The notes under the pieces were generated by a model. It was not told the origin of the DNA. It did no database searches and worked only from the letters and a program-made list of their open reading frames with translations. Below are positions 10,952 to 30,393 of a DNA stretch of 64,000 bases, one piece after another (within the stretch, counting starts at the first letter, position 1; each line of letters opens with the position of its first letter). The translations under genes were made by a program, and so were the position numbers. The DNA comes from Verrucomicrobiota bacterium. Lineage in GTDB: Bacteria > Verrucomicrobiota > Verrucomicrobiia > Opitutales > Cerasicoccaceae. The DNA is taken from positions 64,001 through 128,000 of the forward strand of contig JBCBUK010000005.1 in assembly GCA_039818205.1 (NCBI GenBank), read 5' to 3'.

Positions 10952-11026
10952 GCTCCTGTAGTTCAATGGATAGAACAACGGTTTCCGGTACCGTCGATCT
11001 GGGTTCGACTCCCGGCGGGAGTACCA
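10952..11026 (+). tRNA. tRNA-Arg(CCG)
   Basis: Full cloverleaf: GCTCCTG/CGGGAGT acceptor, GTTC/GAAC D-stem, ACGGT-TTCCGGT-ACCGT anticodon arm, GGTTCGACTCC T-arm, encoded CCA. Confidence 0.97.
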
Positions 11027-11143: not shown

Positions 11144-11815
11144 GTGAACGAAGCGAAGGTATATCCGGTAAAACACGAACGCTATTCTTTCATGGTGAAG
11201 TTCTCGCGGAAGGGCTTCAAACCCTACCGCCGATACTTCCGCGATCGAGATTCTGCCGATCAAGACGCTGCCGCATTCAACCAAAAGCTTTTTCGCGAAG
11301 GATCCGAAGGCGTTCACATTGGGCCGCGAGAACGTCGCGAATTGCAGAACCTTCTAGCCGTCATAAAAGATCGCGGTATGACCATTGGTCAAGCAACTGA
11401 GTTCTTCGAGAAGAATAGCCGCCCACGCAGTTCACTAACTTGGAAGGACGCTGTATTCTCTTTGATCGAAGCGAGAGAACGCCAAGGAGCAAGCGCCCGA
11501 ACCATTCAGAATCTCAGCAGCAGGTTGAACAACTTCGCTGACTATTCTGGCGTGAAGCTGGTGGACGAAGCCACTTCCAAGGACCTCCAAGAATACATCT
11601 ACCGCCCACTGTCAGTTCGCAATCAAATCAACGATTATTCCGCGTTTTCCAATCTCTTCAACTTCCTGCAGAAGCGTGGCCAGATCGAACAAAGTCCCCT
11701 CGCCCTGGTTGAGCGACCAAGAGACACTTCCAAAAAACGCCCAGCGATCCTCAAGCCTGATGAAGCCGCCCTAGCCGCACCGCCGCCCGACCGCCTTTCC
11801 TTGTTTAATAGGTAA
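11144..11815 (+). pseudogene. Tyrosine integrase N-terminal fragment (arm-binding and core-binding/SAM-like domains); catalytic domain missing
   Basis: Sits directly after the tRNA. Reads SARTIQN..SRLNNF...LSVRNQINDYSAFSNLFNFLQKRGQIEQSPLALVERP...RPAILKPDE, then ends where the catalytic domain normally starts. Confidence 0.8.
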
Positions 11816-11833
11816 CATAACTGACAGAGGCAA

Positions 11834-12082
11834 ATGAACACACCAAGAATGAACGATCTGGCCGCGATCAGATACGTCCGCGAAGTCCTCGGGAAGATGG
11901 GCATCGCACTCAAGTTTCCGCTCGTTAAATCGGGCTATGAATACCGCGTGGGGGTCGCCGTGGATGCGGTCACCTACGACGTCAAAGGTAAGTCTACCCG
12001 CAACTGGGAAGAGGCCTTCGCGAAGGCTGGTTTTAGAAGCATCCCAAACAAAGTCTATCACCCTCGATACCAAAAATCATGA
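11834..12082 (+). CDS. Hypothetical phage/island protein
   Basis: GAGG upstream of the ATG; ATGA overlap with the HNH gene. Confidence 0.5.
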   Translation: MNTPRMNDLAAIRYVREVLGKMGIALKFPLVKSGYEYRVGVAVDAVTYDVKGKSTRNWEEAFAKAGFRSIPNKVYHPRYQKS

Positions 12083-12474
12083 AGATGACGCAATCACCAC
12101 CAAGAAGACTTTTTTTGGCAAAGTCCGGCGTTTATACAGAGGGCGATGTGAGTTGGATCGTCCTTGTCGATCGCTTCAAAGATGCGCATCATTATCTCTT
12201 CGATACCGAAGACCTTAAGACTTTCGAACGACATCGCTGGGAATGGATTGGCTACGCAATCCAGTCGAAAGGGCGGGGCAGCTCTTCTTTTCATCGACGC
12301 ATCATGGGCGTGAAATCTCAGCTCCAATACGTCGAACACATCAACGGAGATCTACTGGACAATCGGAAGGCAAACTTGAAGGTCCTAAAGCGCTCCGGTG
12401 GTCGACCCGTTCGCGGGAAATTGTTCAACGACGAAGGTATAGTGATTTGTTTATTCCTCGTGGAAAGCCACTAA
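12079..12474 (+). CDS. Phage-type HNH endonuclease (HNH_3-like), C-terminus possibly replaced at the cassette junction
   Basis: FHRRIMG...VEHINGDLLDNRKANL motif. Confidence 0.75.
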   Translation: MKMTQSPPRRLFLAKSGVYTEGDVSWIVLVDRFKDAHHYLFDTEDLKTFERHRWEWIGYAIQSKGRGSSSFHRRIMGVKSQLQYVEHINGDLLDNRKANLKVLKRSGGRPVRGKLFNDEGIVICLFLVESH

Positions 12475-12669
12475 TAAAGCATCAAGAAAACGATGATGGC
12501 TGGAGATTGAAACTTTTGATTCGGGTTGTTCCTGGTTTGAGTAGCATTATTGAGATGGAGGGGCGGACACTGGATTTTAGAAAAGAAATTGAAAAGGAAG
12601 AAAGAATTGAAATTCATAATAGGGTGAAGGAGAATTATAGGCCTCCTCGAATAATGACTCAAAAAGAAA

Positions 12670-12730
12670 TGTGAACCAGTCACTGGTGGCAACTTCGCTA
12701 CGCTTCGTCGCCACAGCTTTACGATTCGCC
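12670..12730 (+). other. attC site 1 (degenerate R')
   Basis: TGTGAAC-CAGTCACTGGTGGC...GCCACAGCTTTAC-GATTCGCC. R' is GTTCGCC with one extra A. Confidence 0.75.
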
Positions 12731-12736
12731 AAGAAA

Positions 12737-13294
12737 ATGAAAAGAACCATAGCAATAATACTGGCGATTCTCACAACATTCAGCCTGCAAGCCATGACCG
12801 AAGAAGAATACGAAAAGTTTGCCGACGAGTCTTGCGGTTATCTCAGGGCAAAAATTGAATGGACTAAAAGGGAATATCTCCTTGGGGAATACGAGCGGTA
12901 TGATTGGGATCAGGACCGCGGAGAACTTATATTCTCAGATGGCGGAGTTCCTAAAGTGATAGCAAAGATTCAGTTTGTGGGATCCTACTCTGAGAAGTCG
13001 GGAACTTGGTTGTGGTCTTGGGATAACTCCTCAGTTCTAGATCACATAAAGCAAGACATACTCGAAGTGAAAGAATACGGAGAGAAGCATGATATCACCA
13101 AGTTGAGCGATCCGTATTGGAAGGCCGATGAAATCGACGCTTGGGAGATGACCGCGATTGCTGCGAATATACTCCAAGCAAAAGGAGCGTATCGATCGCC
13201 TGATAGCGACAAGCCCGGTTTTACATTCATGATTTTCACAAACATCAAATGGGCGAACAAGGCGGTGGATACAACGCCTACAGCTGCGCCGTAG
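12737..13294 (+). CDS. Cassette gene: DUF6882-like protein with a signal peptide
   Basis: YDWDQDRGELIF...IQFVGSYSEKSGTWLWSWDN...AKGAYR motif (family recalled from memory). ATG lies 6 nt after attC1; the stop lies inside attC2. Confidence 0.75.
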   Translation: MKRTIAIILAILTTFSLQAMTEEEYEKFADESCGYLRAKIEWTKREYLLGEYERYDWDQDRGELIFSDGGVPKVIAKIQFVGSYSEKSGTWLWSWDNSSVLDHIKQDILEVKEYGEKHDITKLSDPYWKADEIDAWEMTAIAANILQAKGAYRSPDSDKPGFTFMIFTNIKWANKAVDTTPTAAP

Positions 13295-13318
13295 GCGTGT
13301 ATCGCTTTAACGTTAGCC
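13252..13318 (+). other. attC site 2
   Basis: GGCGAAC-AAGGCGGTGGATACA-ACGCCTAC...GTAGGCGT-GTATCGCTTTAAC-GTTAGCC. Confidence 0.9.
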
Positions 13319-13331
13319 CAGAAAATTGAGC

Positions 13332-14303
13332 ATGGACGCACTCGATCGCAAAAAGGTCTCAGTCGTGACGAAGTATGCGATCGAGTCGTTTACTGAGGGC
13401 GACTGGTATACCCTCGGCCAAATTACAGGAAAACTCGATGCAGTCACAGATCATCCTCGCTTGTTTAGATCGCTAAGTTTTGGTGACGACGATTACGACT
13501 ACTGCGTTGCGCAGGTTTTAGACACGATTTTCAGTGAAGACCCAAACATGATCGGGGATGTCATTGATCACTTCGACATCGATCTTTGGTATCAACAAAA
13601 AGACCCCGAAAAATATCAGAAGGTATTCGCTGCGACCAAGGTGGCATCCGCTGATTTTTGGGTCGACGGTCAACTCAGAGTCTTCATCAGCCACCTTTCC
13701 TCGAATAAGGAGCGTATGTCGACAATGAAGGCAGAGCTTTCCCATTGGGGGGTCTCAGCATTTATCGCACACGAGGATATTGAGCCATCTCGCGAGTGGC
13801 TGAATGAGGTTGAGGCAGGACTTGAGACGATGGACGTCTTGGTGGCTGTAGTTGAACCTGGTTTTAAGGAGTCGGACTGGTGCGCTCAAGAGGTTGGATT
13901 CGCGTTGGGTCGCCACATAGACGTCATTCCTCTTCGAGCGGGTCTAGATCCATTCGGATTCTTCGGGAAGATTCAGGGAGTTCAGATCAAGGGCAAGATT
14001 CCGACCGAGGTTGCATCCGAGATTGTCAGGCTGCTCCTGAAGAAGCCTAAACATCGTGACAAGTTGCTTCGAGCGATGGGGAAGGCTTTTCGTGCACTTC
14101 AATCCGAACAGAAGACGCGAGCGTTTAAGCTGTTGGATTCATGGACGGTAGCAACTGATTCCCAGATCAGAGCTCTGCTGGAGAATAGCTCGCTTTCAGA
14201 TTTTGAGCGAAATAGACTCAAGTCTTTGATTTCACGGGTAGAGGCGTTCAAGCCTCACGAGGCAGAGCAGGTGCCAACTGACGATGATGAGATTCCGTTC
14301 TAA
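13332..14303 (+). CDS. Cassette gene: TIR-domain protein with an Abi-like N-terminal domain (putative anti-phage)
   Basis: RVFISHLS...AFIAHEDIEPSREW...SDWCAQEVGFALG is a TIR_2-type domain with the catalytic Glu; N-terminal HPRLFRSLSFGDDDY motif. Confidence 0.85.
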   Translation: MDALDRKKVSVVTKYAIESFTEGDWYTLGQITGKLDAVTDHPRLFRSLSFGDDDYDYCVAQVLDTIFSEDPNMIGDVIDHFDIDLWYQQKDPEKYQKVFAATKVASADFWVDGQLRVFISHLSSNKERMSTMKAELSHWGVSAFIAHEDIEPSREWLNEVEAGLETMDVLVAVVEPGFKESDWCAQEVGFALGRHIDVIPLRAGLDPFGFFGKIQGVQIKGKIPTEVASEIVRLLLKKPKHRDKLLRAMGKAFRALQSEQKTRAFKLLDSWTVATDSQIRALLENSSLSDFERNRLKSLISRVEAFKPHEAEQVPTDDDEIPF

Positions 14304-14312
14304 ACCAAATGA

Positions 14313-14440
14313 GGCTAACAAGCCGCGACATGACAACCACTACCAGCCGCCCTGTTTCGATGATTTCCCCTGACTACAACCCTAACCCCGTGATCGACGC
14401 TCGCCGCCGCTGTTAGTGGTGCATGCGCTCATCGTTGGGC
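14313..14440 (+). other. attC site 3 (long, 128 bp)
   Basis: GGCTAAC-AAGCCGCGACATGACAACCACTA...TAGTGGTGCATGCGCTCATC-GTTGGGC. Confidence 0.85.
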
Positions 14441-14447
14441 ATGAATA

Positions 14448-14858
14448 ATGGAACTAAACTTTAAGCTGCACTGGTTCAGATTTAAGCGTCCTATAACAAT
14501 CGAGTGTTCGGACGGCTCGAACTACACCTGCAAGTTCCAATACACACCACACAAAGCATTCTGGATATTTCGAGGTGAAGAAGAAATCGTAAGCGGGATT
14601 TCACAATACAGCGACGTCTGGCAGGTTCGTGACTCGAAAGAAGATAAAATACTATTCGTTACCAGCAACGACTGGGGGAAGTTTTCTATCAAAATTGGCG
14701 ACAAACAGATTCCGGAGAAAGAATTTCATCAGGAGTTTGGATGGGAATCTTACTCACGAACAGGACTCGCGTCATGGGGCCTTTCTTTTCCAGCAAAAGA
14801 AAAATATTTGGAAGAGCTAGCCTATGGATACTTGAAAGTTTATTGGCGCAGTGACTAA
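14448..14858 (+). CDS. Cassette gene: hypothetical protein
   Basis: 136-aa ORF filling the space between attC3 and attC4. Confidence 0.7.
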   Translation: MELNFKLHWFRFKRPITIECSDGSNYTCKFQYTPHKAFWIFRGEEEIVSGISQYSDVWQVRDSKEDKILFVTSNDWGKFSIKIGDKQIPEKEFHQEFGWESYSRTGLASWGLSFPAKEKYLEELAYGYLKVYWRSD

Positions 14859-14872
14859 TGTTCGACAACTAA

Positions 14873-14947
14873 GCCCAACGAGGCGAGAGTGGGCAACTCC
14901 GTTACGTGCTCCGCAGCTTCACTGCGTGCCACCTCTTAACGTTCTCC
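14873..14947 (+). other. attC site 4
   Basis: GCCCAAC-GAGGCGAGAGTGGGCA...TGCCACCTCTTAAC-GTTCTCC. Confidence 0.85.
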
Positions 14948-14954
14948 AAATAAT

Positions 14955-15482
14955 ATGAAAAGATCAATCAGGCATATTATCTTCGACTGGGGTGACACCT
15001 TGATGCATGACGACTCAACAAAGGAATCACCCATGTATCAGTGGGAAATCGTCAGAGAAGTGGAATGCGCAAGAAATGTGCTAAACGAACTGAGCAGACT
15101 CTATGAATTATCTGTTGCTACAAATGCAGAGCAGTCGAACGAACAAATGGTTTTGAAGGCACTAAACAGAGTTGAGATGGATAAGCACATTCAACGAGTG
15201 TTCACCAGTAGGGCGGTCGGAAAGAAAAAGAATGAAAGAGAATTCTGGATTTCTGTTTCGAATCAGTTGGAAGCAAAGGCAGAGGAAATTTTAGTTGTCG
15301 GAGATAGTTTCCAGAGTGACGTCATGACACCAACATCAGCAGGAATGCAAGCCCTCTGGTATAACTCACGCTCTGGTGAAAAGAAAGAAGGAATGAGATA
15401 TCGGACTATTCACAATCTATCAGAGATAACCAACGAAGCAGAACAAATCAGCGCAGGCAACGCAGACAAGCTGCGCGCCTAG
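14955..15482 (+). CDS. Cassette gene: HAD-superfamily hydrolase
   Basis: IIFDWGDTL motif I, VATNA motif II, VVGDSFQSDV motif IV. Confidence 0.9.
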   Translation: MKRSIRHIIFDWGDTLMHDDSTKESPMYQWEIVREVECARNVLNELSRLYELSVATNAEQSNEQMVLKALNRVEMDKHIQRVFTSRAVGKKKNEREFWISVSNQLEAKAEEILVVGDSFQSDVMTPTSAGMQALWYNSRSGEKKEGMRYRTIHNLSEITNEAEQISAGNADKLRA

Positions 15483-15496
15483 CTTCCACGTTCAAA
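15438..15496 (+). other. attC site 5 (59 bp)
   Basis: GCAGAAC-AAATCAGCGCAGGC-AACGCAGACAAGCTGCGC-GCCTAGCT-TCCAC-GTTCAAA. Confidence 0.8.
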
Positions 15497-15558: not shown

Positions 15559-15760
15559 GGTTTCCAGTACCGTCGATCTGGGTTCGACTCCCGGCGGGAG
15601 TACCACTCTAAAAACGAGTGGACGCTAGTGCTAATCAGGGTTTCACGTGAAAACGGTGAAATATGCTGTTAGTGCAAAAAATTACCCATAGACCTGAAAA
15701 ATCAAAGGTATACCCCGTAACGAACGAGCGCAATTCGTTCATGGTGAAGCTCTCTAGCAA
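15559..15760 (+). repeat. attR: direct copy of the tRNA-Arg 3' half, downstream leader and a diverged integrase 5' remnant
   Basis: GGTTTCCAGTACCGTCGATCTGGGTTCGACTCCCGGCGGGAGTACCACTCTAAAAACGAGTGGACGC matches 10979 onward with one mismatch in the anticodon. The remnant encodes KVYPVTNERNSFMVKLS versus KVYPVKHERYSFMVKFS. Confidence 0.93.
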
Positions 15761-29680: not shown

Positions 29681-29910
29681 TCGGCGGTAGGGTTTGAAGC
29701 CCTTCCGCGAGAACTTCACCATGAAAGAATAGCGTTCGTGTTTTACCGGATATACCTTCGCTTCGTTCACTTATACCTCGTTTTATACCGATTATTCAGG
29801 TTTGCGAGTATTTTTGTGCACTAATAGCCGGTTTCGCCGTTTTCACGTGAAACCCTGATTAGCACTAGCGTCCACTCGTTTTTAGAGTGGTACTCCCGCC
29901 GGGAGTCGAA
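29681..29910 (-). repeat. Inverted copy of the tRNA-Arg 3' end, leader and integrase 5' end
   Basis: The reverse complement matches about 11003-11232 with only a few substitutions. Confidence 0.95.
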
Positions 29911-30393
29911 TCCTCTCGAGTCGTTCATCTATTTTCGCCGTCTTCATCGTGGACTCGGCTAGCGATGCCTTCGCTACTAACATCGATTTCTACTCGGCTG
30001 AGCCGGCTTTCTCGCCGCATACTTTGGAGGTCAATCAGCTTGGGATTCAAATTGCCCGAGGATTGCCTGTAGGGTCTCAGTTTGCGTTTCTGGCTGAGTA
30101 ATGCATTGAGATTCTTACACTGAAAATCTCTCCTATTGCTTCTTATTAAACATGTATCGATGAATTTTCCAGGAGCCGGCTTCCTTTCTCAGGACAAAAA
30201 GTTCTCGGTTTTCTTCAGACACCTTTTCATCTGTTGCGCGAATCAAAACCGTTCCTTTTGAGCTCGTCCGCACATAGGCGAAGTCGCCAAGCACGGCTAT
30301 CTCATCAATGTAAAATTCTATATCGAGCAGTGTTCCGATTGCCTTGTTTCGTATGACCGAAGAGAGTACCCGGTTGATCCTTTCGATGTTGGC

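Follow-up and report, generated by a model that had tools for sequence, protein, structure and literature searches.

The window, a stretch of 64,000 nucleotides from a contig of a Verrucomicrobiota bacterium (Opitutales; Cerasicoccaceae), holds a tRNA-anchored island that contains an array of integron cassettes. The following features are found from the tRNA gene onward on the top (+) or bottom (-) strand; the E-values of the attC sites come from the covariance model R3.

10952..11026, +, tRNA-Arg(CCG) gene, the integration target (attL)
11144..11815, +, island tyrosine integrase gene, truncated, 223 codons; homology stops near 11770
11770..11790, deletion junction 1, between blastn blocks 10045-9228 and 5503-5270 on L035
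11794..11822, +, non-coding motif conserved among islands of the Rep family
11834..12082, +, 82-aa core gene of the island family, 65% identical to an ORF of congener G003
12079..12443, +, HNH-AP2 endonuclease gene, 5' half (277 aa in G003)
~12441, deletion junction 2, HNH stump joined to the cassette 1 remnant
12441..12674, +, cassette 1 remnant, C-terminal ~75 codons of a ~120-aa protein
12670-12730, -, attC1, 61 bp, E 1.2e-5
12737..13294, +, cassette 2 gene, DUF6882 (PF21813), 185 aa, 125.7 bits
13252-13318, -, attC2, 67 bp, E 7.4e-8
13332..14303, +, cassette 3 gene, AbiJ_NTD5-TIR fusion, 323 aa, Glu187 in the TIR WCxxE motif
14313-14440, -, attC3, 128 bp, E 1.1e-4
14448..14858, +, cassette 4 gene, 136 aa, without a family match; 46% identity to the product of a C19 contig cassette
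14873-14947, -, attC4, 75 bp, E 3.6e-7
14955..15482, +, cassette 5 gene, HAD-family hydrolase, 175 aa
15438-15496, -, attC5, the last site, 59 bp, E 2.6e-10; attR follows ~60 bp further on
15559..15605, +, attR, equal to tRNA positions 29-75 with one mismatch, in the anticodon loop

Each attC has the layout R''(AAC)-5 nt-L''(8 nt, one extrahelical base)...L'(7 nt)-5 nt-R'(GTT), and the L-boxes of attC1 to attC5 score 6.5, 5, 7, 7 and 6.5 of 7. The GTT/AAC cores are intact in four of the five sites; attC1 carries one base inserted in the R' core (GTT) and is probably inactive. In a sequence-only reading of this DNA, the sites, which together span 2.8 kb, had been picked out as hairpins of 59-128 bp, and a search with an attC covariance model had been proposed. 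R3, trained on 12 attC sites from three other genomes, recovers them as its ranks 1 to 5 in the 64-kb window, all on the bottom strand and at E 2.6e-10 to 1.1e-4, with rank 6 at E 0.073. The complementarity between neighbouring sites described in that reading is borne out, 15 of 16 variable R' bases being complementary to the R'' that follows (p ~2e-7, taking a chance of 0.3 for each base) as against 9 of 20 bases for R' and R'' inside the same attC. The co-oriented ORFs do start 6-13 nt downstream of R', as it had also claimed. Its proposal to fold the bottom strands gave a divided answer: the R- and L-boxes pair with an extrahelical base, whereas the folding energy reaches z < -2 in one site of five, and free-folding energies alone are weak evidence. 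Compensatory changes are seen in all eight L-box pairs of the R3 training sites, a count that is partly circular since these sites were chosen for L-box pairing. An 85% match to attC3 lies on contig C10 of G003, and an Rfam search of the window returned only the tRNA.

Counts of attC sites were taken from covariance models because rule-based scans proved either unspecific (372 sites in the genome, with two spurious clusters) or, in strict form, blind to the array in the window and to that of L139. Genome-wide, R3 reported 11 attC sites and missed attC3 in that run; the scores of a further model, R1, are not independent for the source genome, since it includes four attC of the window. The five sites are confirmed as genuine attC. 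With at least two clustered attC (here five) and no TIGR02249 or IntI tblastn match near 76-80 kb of the contig (C5), the array is a CALIN, an element of known kind.

The cassette 1 remnant (GC 0.37) encodes a protein that aligns from residue 46 of P0122 (118 aa), with no similarity upstream; the gene is 5'-truncated at the deletion junction. The AbiJ_NTD5-TIR protein of cassette 3 has 474 homologs across phyla (63-94% among the matches listed), and its gene is present in none of the 15 genomes of the family examined. Against known TIR defence systems (Thoeris and others) it reaches 36.7 bits where the curated cut-off is 220, which leaves it outside them, and PADLOC gave weak matches to the TIR domain only. 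A candidate abortive-infection protein, it most likely confers abortive phage defence. For cassette 4, the Atlas offers only a lead to a Tubby/LOR-like fold, with a score under the bar.

Both ends of the island, tRNA-Arg and its 3' repeat, are real, as the sequence-only reading had it. Its description as a phage-integrase island holds for the tyrosine integrase and the att repeats, but the integrase is a stump cut at codon ~210: 210 of 361 aa align, with 81% identity, to the intact G003 copy, and the catalytic half is gone. The closest integrase paralogs in the source genome are stumps of 31 and 59 codons. The island is thus not an active integrative element, having both att sites and no full-length integrase. 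Downstream of attR come ~150 bp that resemble the post-tRNA arm together with the opening codons of an integrase gene from an older copy. The array was originally taken to start at 12423. The GTT found there is part of the HNH gene, which stays homologous to a sister copy as far as ~12443, so that entry at this GTT is ruled out and the array begins instead at the junction near 12441.

The proposed comparison of the tRNA-Arg locus across relatives was informative. Four of five congeners have the site without island genes, while G003 carries in the same tRNA an intact and cassette-free element of 8.1 kb (no attC match in L035), ordered integrase, regulators, G2P-type Rep, SSB-like protein, 98 aa, 85 aa, HNH-AP2, cargo and attR. 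Relative to G003, ~3.7 kb were lost at junction 1, comprising the 3' part of the integrase gene, the regulators, Rep, the SSB-like gene and one further gene. The island is a 4.6-kb deletion relic of the 8.1-kb tRNA-Arg element, and attI and Pc, if once present, would have been lost at junction 2. In run X1, which may be the source sample, single contigs cover both junctions with no differences, and no joint that skips a cassette is seen among them. This copy of the island is frozen, with integrase, Rep and attI lost and no intact cognate integrase or IntI in the assembly.

The G003 Rep is an inovirus-type rolling-circle protein (PF23343, 56.6 bits against a cut-off of 27.8). Among the nine core ORFs of the G003 island, Pfam and PHROGs matches are limited to the integrase, the G2P Rep and HNH/AP2. 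PICI and P4-like satellites have a primase-helicase replication module and capsid-hijacking genes, and the island was rejected as one of them on these matches. An inovirus prophage is expected to carry a coat protein and the Zot/pI assembly ATPase. Here Rep is deleted, and coat and Zot/pI are absent, as they are from the G003 island. Other relatives have coat, pIII-like and Zot/pI genes downstream of the 85-aa gene; Inovirus coat B and Zot score above cut-off in related elements, a Zot-like match is found in 3 of 57 Rep loci, and L212 has the full inovirus gene order. The 82-aa gene has a homolog in L126/L212 and lies directly upstream of the coat gene in a full inovirus-like prophage. Helper-type prophages occur in the genus (L212), with pieces in the source genome (C7, C42). 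The G003 relative, with its own Rep and SSB and no morphogenesis genes, resembles in this an inovirus satellite of the RS1/TLC-like type; of these features, the island in the source genome retains only the downstream motif and the 82-aa gene. The best reading of the gene content is that the family comprises small, tRNA-integrating, inovirus-satellite-like islands of Opitutales with an inovirus-type rolling-circle Rep. The motif at 11794, present in 39 of 57 Rep loci, in none of 48 upstream controls and at two places in the source genome, is a candidate origin, promoter or operator. Reading it as a LexA box, together with promoter scans, gave nothing firm.

The absence of an integron integrase noted in the sequence-only reading stands for the window, and no intI scores above cut-off in the genome; yet the genome has several N-terminal intI stumps and seven copies of the attI leader, and intI is above cut-off in three congeners. 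An intact gene could be missing, as the assembly breaks at these repeats and 908 of its bases are withheld. No attI leader lies within the island, the nearest copy being 20 kb away, and the array is therefore not a complete integron. Those arrays of the source genome whose 5' end survives start with the leader (seven copies). A search of 300 genomes that scored two candidates in each detected the leader in just one other genome. In one case, an attI leader with a cassette lies no more than 20 bp behind the 3' half of a sister HNH-AP2 gene, which shows 90% identity over 67 bp; this copy belongs to a different island, in a tRNA-Ser. In two other islands (C48/C39; C7), a truncated island gene is joined to an intI stump.

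Arrays were also found in related elements. Among the 43 Rep loci with at least 4 kb downstream, four from other Opitutales (L260, L261, L220 and L244) carry attC arrays in the cargo slot, where ~0.4 would be expected, a rough enrichment as the background comes from one family and thresholds differ; a match in L218 (E 0.083) was left out of the count. All model matches in these four lie downstream of Rep and are co-oriented with it, and in L260 and L244 the arrays are flanked by full-length integrase, Rep and both att repeats. The hosts of array-bearing relatives include marine and soil bacteria of the same group; two of the four are attC-rich (65 and 16 matches), and the sites of L244 are degenerate. 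Within the source genome, a tRNA gene or a tRNA-end repeat is found no further than 5 kb from six of nine attC loci, against a background of 10.5%. In the congeners and G008, 6 of 40 retrieved attC loci include a tRNA in their ~20 kb, with no general preference of attC clusters for tRNAs; most of these clusters lie away from tRNAs, so that scattered small CALINs are commonplace in the family. The same island with the same cassettes was not found in two genomes, so transfer is not demonstrated. A phylum-wide search of 400 genomes gave no integrase closer to that of the island. Scans of metagenome and viral contigs with the G003 integrase or Rep as single proteins gave no match; a Rep alignment matched one viral contig, which has no attC. 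In 80 metagenome and viral loci there was one attC match, apparently the same DNA as L220.

The claim that a CALIN sits inside a tRNA-anchored phage-type island of a verrucomicrobium is thus supported, with an inovirus-type Rep island family of Opitutales as the carrier. We consider it reasonably probable that the array entered the cargo slot of this now decayed island by capture. The island would have taken up an attI-bearing piece of the integron of the genus directly behind HNH-AP2, where a then-intact IntI would have stacked at least five cassettes. One deletion would then have removed the stretch from the 3' half of the integrase gene to SSB, and another the 3' half of HNH-AP2, attI and the start of cassette 1. 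The attC anatomy, the independent model, the chain of complementary ends and the intact cassette-free relative in the same tRNA speak for capture, and the Rep, coat and Zot genes of relatives, the retained 11794 motif, the sister HNH-AP2 gene with attI and the arrays in four of 43 Rep loci suggest the same. Against it, attI would be deduced from the sister copy in the tRNA-Ser island rather than from the island itself, no attI leader or intI stump is seen in the four array-bearing relatives, and 39 of the 43 Rep loci are array-free. Since the array starts at a deletion junction, the locus itself does not tell capture from use of the island as a landing pad.

In the latter case, an IntI encoded outside the island would have put cassettes, or one circle holding several, into a secondary GWT/attG site by attP, and the island would never have had attI. 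According to the accessible part of Loot et al. (10.1101/2022.09.11.507474), cassette insertion by IntI is highly frequent at GWT sites; the L220 array starts at a plain GTT, has a perfect chain (16/16), ends on the integrase stop codon and shares its genome with an IntI-like gene elsewhere; and dispersed CALINs and single attC sites are common in the family (115 matches at 69 loci in 64 Mb). The attI leaders at the surviving 5' ends, one of them behind the sister HNH-AP2, tell against such an entry, as do the sole candidate GTT at the left end, which is part of the HNH gene, and the lack of a GTT at the right-junction position in the island of the congener; we regard it as rather unlikely. 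Still less probable is that dead, tolerant tRNA islands merely received shuffled pieces of a chromosomal integron and never moved with cassettes. In the source genome, truncation affects all integron parts and almost all island integrases observed, no identical island-plus-array recurs, and the accessible text of Qi et al. 2023 (PMC9892861) states the same ambiguity for cryptic prophages; but the complete elements around the L260 and L244 arrays, and the constant slot and orientation of the arrays, tell against it. An ordinary accessory operon with terminator-like or REP-like hairpins would suit the unremarkable folding z-scores of four attC, and conserved gene order in relatives had been named as a sign of it. 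The order was not found in 60 relatives, the TIR gene is missing from the 15 family genomes, and the R3 matches, the paired changes in its training sites and the R'/R'' chain oppose this reading, which the model and the chain together refute; we give it hardly any credence.

Returning to capture, cassettes 3-5, with sound attC on both sides, would be excisable by an incoming IntI, and their expression would need island or cassette promoters. The view of the tRNA island as a cassette vehicle draws indirect support from the intact relatives with arrays, but not from this copy, which lacks integrase, Rep and attI. More speculatively, and in our estimate doubtful, filamentous-phage satellites of Opitutales might use integron cassettes as an accessory-gene system, with attI or a GTT landing site in the cargo slot of small tRNA islands that have an inovirus Rep, loading in trans by the IntI of the host, and transfer between cells in filamentous particles. 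If true, such satellites would act as integrons that move without an intI of their own, and the many dispersed CALINs of the order would in part stem from them.

In the accessible text of Cury et al. 2016 (PMC4889954), the average CALIN has five attC, Verrucomicrobia are among integron bearers, and four routes are listed for the origin of CALINs. The present array resembles those CALINs in having at least two attC, no intI close by, cassettes whose function is either unknown or defence and a genome of 4-6 Mb, and differs in lying between attL and attR of a Rep island; prophages are unmentioned in that main text. Phage integrons and CALINs (PMC9892861, accessible text) likewise occur in temperate and cryptic prophages, with arrival before or after prophage death left open, whereas the carrier here is a small, recurrent island with a single-strand-type Rep; inoviruses, tRNA and Verrucomicrobia are absent from that main text, and inoviruses from one supplement. 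Integrase-type inovirus prophages with hypervariable defence regions (PMC12715192) and satellites such as RS1 (PMC11389934), as far as these articles are accessible, share with the island family the G2P-type Rep, SSB-like protein, a tyrosine integrase of their own, coat and Zot/pI genes in part of the members, other members with Rep but no morphogenesis genes, and a variable cargo slot with defence-like genes. The family differs in its Opitutales host and in a cargo slot built of integron cassettes, integrons being unmentioned in the accessible text of PMC12715192; moreover, the copy in the source genome is without Rep and integrase, and packaging by a helper is putative. The attG/SALIN model of Loot et al. 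accounts for cassettes remote from intI and for the abundance of small CALINs in the family, but arrays in the source genome start with attI leaders, beside intI stumps, and prophages are unmentioned in the accessible part of that work. Finally, tRNA/tmRNA islands (PMC12595487, accessible text) carry a tyrosine integrase, AlpA, an inovirus Gp2-like protein and defence cargo and are moved by a helper phage; they are larger, reside in Pseudomonas and depend on a jumbo-phage helper, with no mention of integrons or cassettes there.

Carriage of CALINs by an inovirus-satellite-like island family was not found in print, and the data hint that cassettes, a likely anti-phage gene among them, have a vehicle that has so far gone unrecognised. 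While the locus itself is a relic, its value lies in the family pattern: arrays in Rep islands bring together integron arrays and satellite cargo slots, both known as hotspots of defence genes. Intact examples of this recurring carrier occur in cultured strains, namely of Pelagicoccus mobilis (L244, with an array) and of Cerasicoccus (L211, cassette-free, and L212), which opens to direct test one route by which CALINs may arise and cassettes may travel between species outside the clinical integron classes. The AbiJ_NTD5-TIR cassette is a widespread candidate defence gene supplied by such an array.

The integron cassette array of the window is real. All five attC positions proposed in the sequence-only reading were borne out by inspection, every site having the layout R''-5 nt-L''(8)...L'(7)-5 nt-R'. 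The attC covariance model R3, which was trained on 12 sites from three other genomes (the G030 array, the G001 integron and G035) to guard against circularity, was run unfiltered over the whole window and ranked these sites first to fifth, each with its hit on the bottom strand (E 2.6e-10 to 1.1e-4); the sixth-best match had an E value of 0.073. Complementarity between R' and the next R'', the expected mark of cassettes integrated as circles, was likewise recovered, with 15 of 16 variable positions matching the reverse complement versus 9/20 within sites. On the bottom strand the L-boxes pair at 5 to 7 of 7 positions. Folding energy by itself does not set four of the five bottom strands apart from shuffled sequences. 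Because of an additional base within its GTT core, attC1 is probably dead.

The cassette genes comprise a DUF6882 gene, an AbiJ_NTD5-TIR fusion, a 136-aa gene without a family and a HAD hydrolase. They do not form an ordinary operon, the alternative raised in the sequence-only reading: gene order is not conserved in 60 relatives, from which the block is absent except for attC-sized pieces (with four candidates evaluated in each genome), and 0/15 family genomes have the TIR gene, although it has 474 homologs across phyla. Domain content and Glu187 suggest an abortive-infection role for the AbiJ_NTD5-TIR cassette. According to a preprint, integron cassettes often encode defence, and the N-terminus of cassette-encoded Taranis is related to AbiJ_NTD5 (Darracq et al., 10.1101/2024.07.02.601686).

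The array sits, as had been claimed, in a tRNA-Arg island, here of 4.6 kb.

Features of the window
10952-11026: tRNA-Arg(CCG), one end of the island
11794-11822: non-coding motif
about 12443: junction of deletion 2
15559-15605: repeat of the 3' part of the tRNA, other end of the island
29681-29913 (-): the tRNA-Arg 3' end again (third copy, inverted), with the arm region and the opening 31 codons of the integrase; 97% identity
35458-36040 (+): orphan attI leader with a cassette of the glyoxalase family and a degenerate attC behind it

Four congeners lack island genes at this locus, and the congener G003 carries an intact 8.1-kb island (L035) in which no attC was found. Its order is integrase (361 aa), two divergent small genes, a 109-aa gene, Rep (family PF23343, REP_ORF2-G2P, above cut-off), a gene presumed SSB-like from its position, 98-aa and 85-aa genes, HNH-AP2, unrelated cargo and attR. 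Judged by this comparison, the window island is a double deletion of an L035-type island. Deletion 1 took out about 3.7 kb between integrase codon ~210 and a point immediately upstream of an 82-aa gene. Deletion 2 joins the HNH gene to the interior of cassette 1; in homologs of ~120 aa, the alignment with the cassette 1 protein begins only at residue 46. The array start previously placed at GTT 12423 is therefore no insertion point, since the second junction fuses the HNH gene into cassette 1 and this GTT belongs to HNH sequence. Both junctions are spanned without differences by contigs of a public run, possibly the source sample. The 14-kb block between attR and the third tRNA copy (pirin, amidohydrolases, isochorismatase, MFS, LysR) could have been inverted or could be cargo of the island.

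The motif at 11794 places the relic in the family of small tRNA-integrating islands with an inovirus-type rolling-circle Rep: it lies behind Rep in 39/57 related loci and in 0/48 upstream controls, and recurs in the source genome at a single further place, within a related element. It is preceded by a GC-rich hairpin, lies between the SSB-like gene and cargo or coat genes, and is a candidate rolling-circle origin or promoter; deletion 1 ends about 20 bp upstream of it. On gene content, the family includes filamentous prophages, as in locus L212 (Rep-SSB-X-85 aa-coat-like-pIII-like-small-Zot/pI), and in the source genome an element on C7 carries Inovirus coat B and another, on C42, carries Zot. 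Filamentous prophages with coat B, Zot/pI and G2P Rep are seen in Opitutales at C7:214559-219321, C42 and L212. Rep matches occur in 20/301 genomes of the order, and the closest named records are from Cerasicoccus and other Opitutales.

The reported absence of intI holds genome-wide in that no TIGR02249 match exceeds the cut-off, but N-terminal stumps are present on contigs C39 (67% identical to the G003 IntI), C1 and C48, with a different type on C7; the C-terminal half of the congener's IntI retrieved only Xer-like proteins from this genome. Three of five congeners have an intI over cut-off. IntI proteins of the genus (L074, L076, L077, L038, L078, L079) have 414-469 aa with an additional N-terminal region, and their genes differ in locus by genome and are frequently frameshifted or split. 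A ~270-bp leader, present in seven copies in the source genome, ends in an attI-type core conserved to G|TT, after which cassettes follow; on C39/C16 and in G003 it precedes intI and the first cassette, and this placement is what marks it as attI. Leaders without intI (C2, C39, C9, C16, C1; in G003, L197-L199 and L036) all start abruptly on their left side at a short imperfect palindrome, which lies about 270 bp 5' of the crossover point. In L036 (G003:C10 42857-44572), leader and cassettes directly adjoin the tail-gene end of a tailed prophage.

Integron debris also lies in sister islands. C2 has a sister HNH-AP2 gene whose 3' half is intact, with an attI leader immediately behind it; a truncated Rep on C48 continues into a reversed intI stump; and C7 reads tRNA-Arg(TCT), integrase stump, intI stump, attI core, cassettes. 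Of the nine attC loci found in this genome, six have a tRNA gene or tRNA-end repeat no more than 5 kb away (background 10.5%); the remaining three lie next to island or intI fragments, on short contigs or at the ends of contigs. Since these repeats interrupt the assembly, exact layouts are uncertain. At the C2 start, C14 start and C45 end, the graph forks right after the GTT of one attC, reflecting either two copies or a recombined subpopulation.

In relatives, 64 Mb of sequence gave 115 attC hits, spread across 69 loci; small CALINs (attC clusters without intI) are common, mostly away from tRNAs, and 6/40 fetched loci have a tRNA in ~20 kb. We scanned 57 GTDB Rep loci, 12 others and 80 metagenome/viral loci. 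Island-internal arrays occur in four of the 43 GTDB Rep loci having at least 4 kb downstream.

Rep loci with cassette arrays
L260: 4 attC sites; full integrase, PIN, Xis-like HTH, Rep, att repeat
L261: 2 attC sites
L220: 4 attC sites; R'/R'' chain 16/16
L244: a single weak model hit plus two degenerate sites recognised by eye; full integrase, Rep, att repeat

About 0.4 such loci would be expected from the family background (rough p about 5e-4). With equal sequence up- and downstream, all model hits are downstream of Rep and co-oriented (p about 0.004, rough, from four loci). The L260 host has no intI over cut-off and one other attC locus.

The sequence-only reading had left the choice between capture by the island and use of it as a landing pad by IntI. 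None of these four loci showed a recognisable attI leader, and both routes may therefore operate. For the window, the island would have taken up an attI-bearing piece behind HNH-AP2, a then-intact IntI would have loaded cassettes, and island and array would have decayed later. The island now appears immobile, while cassettes 3-5 might still be excised by an incoming IntI.

As a CALIN in a cryptic element, the locus belongs to a known kind, and it is a frozen relic. It fits the CALIN definition of Cury 2016 (PMC4889954); other sources describe CALINs in phages and cryptic prophages (Qi 2023, PMC9892861), off-platform cassette insertion (Loot et al. preprint, 10.1101/2022.09.11.507474) and defence-rich hypervariable regions in inoviruses (PMC12715192). 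The recurrent pairing of cassette arrays with inovirus-satellite-like Rep islands appears to be a new variation on it; among the papers listed by full-text searches of non-subscription literature, none described arrays in inovirus-type Rep islands or Opitutales islands. The pairing is open to testing in cultured strains.

Further cassettes were seen in the source genome. A tRNA-Ser island (C14:95-961 and C2:1042-2130) holds a second TIR-domain cassette and a RelA/SpoT-domain gene, both defence candidates. At C1:89078-92440 (-) and C9:209832-211120 (+), attI leaders precede arrays with decayed attC, that is, fixed cassettes. At C19:62053-63750, a tRNA-Met end repeat accompanies two cassettes, of which one shares 46% identity with cassette 4; beside the attC lies what we take to be a group II intron reverse-transcriptase fragment.
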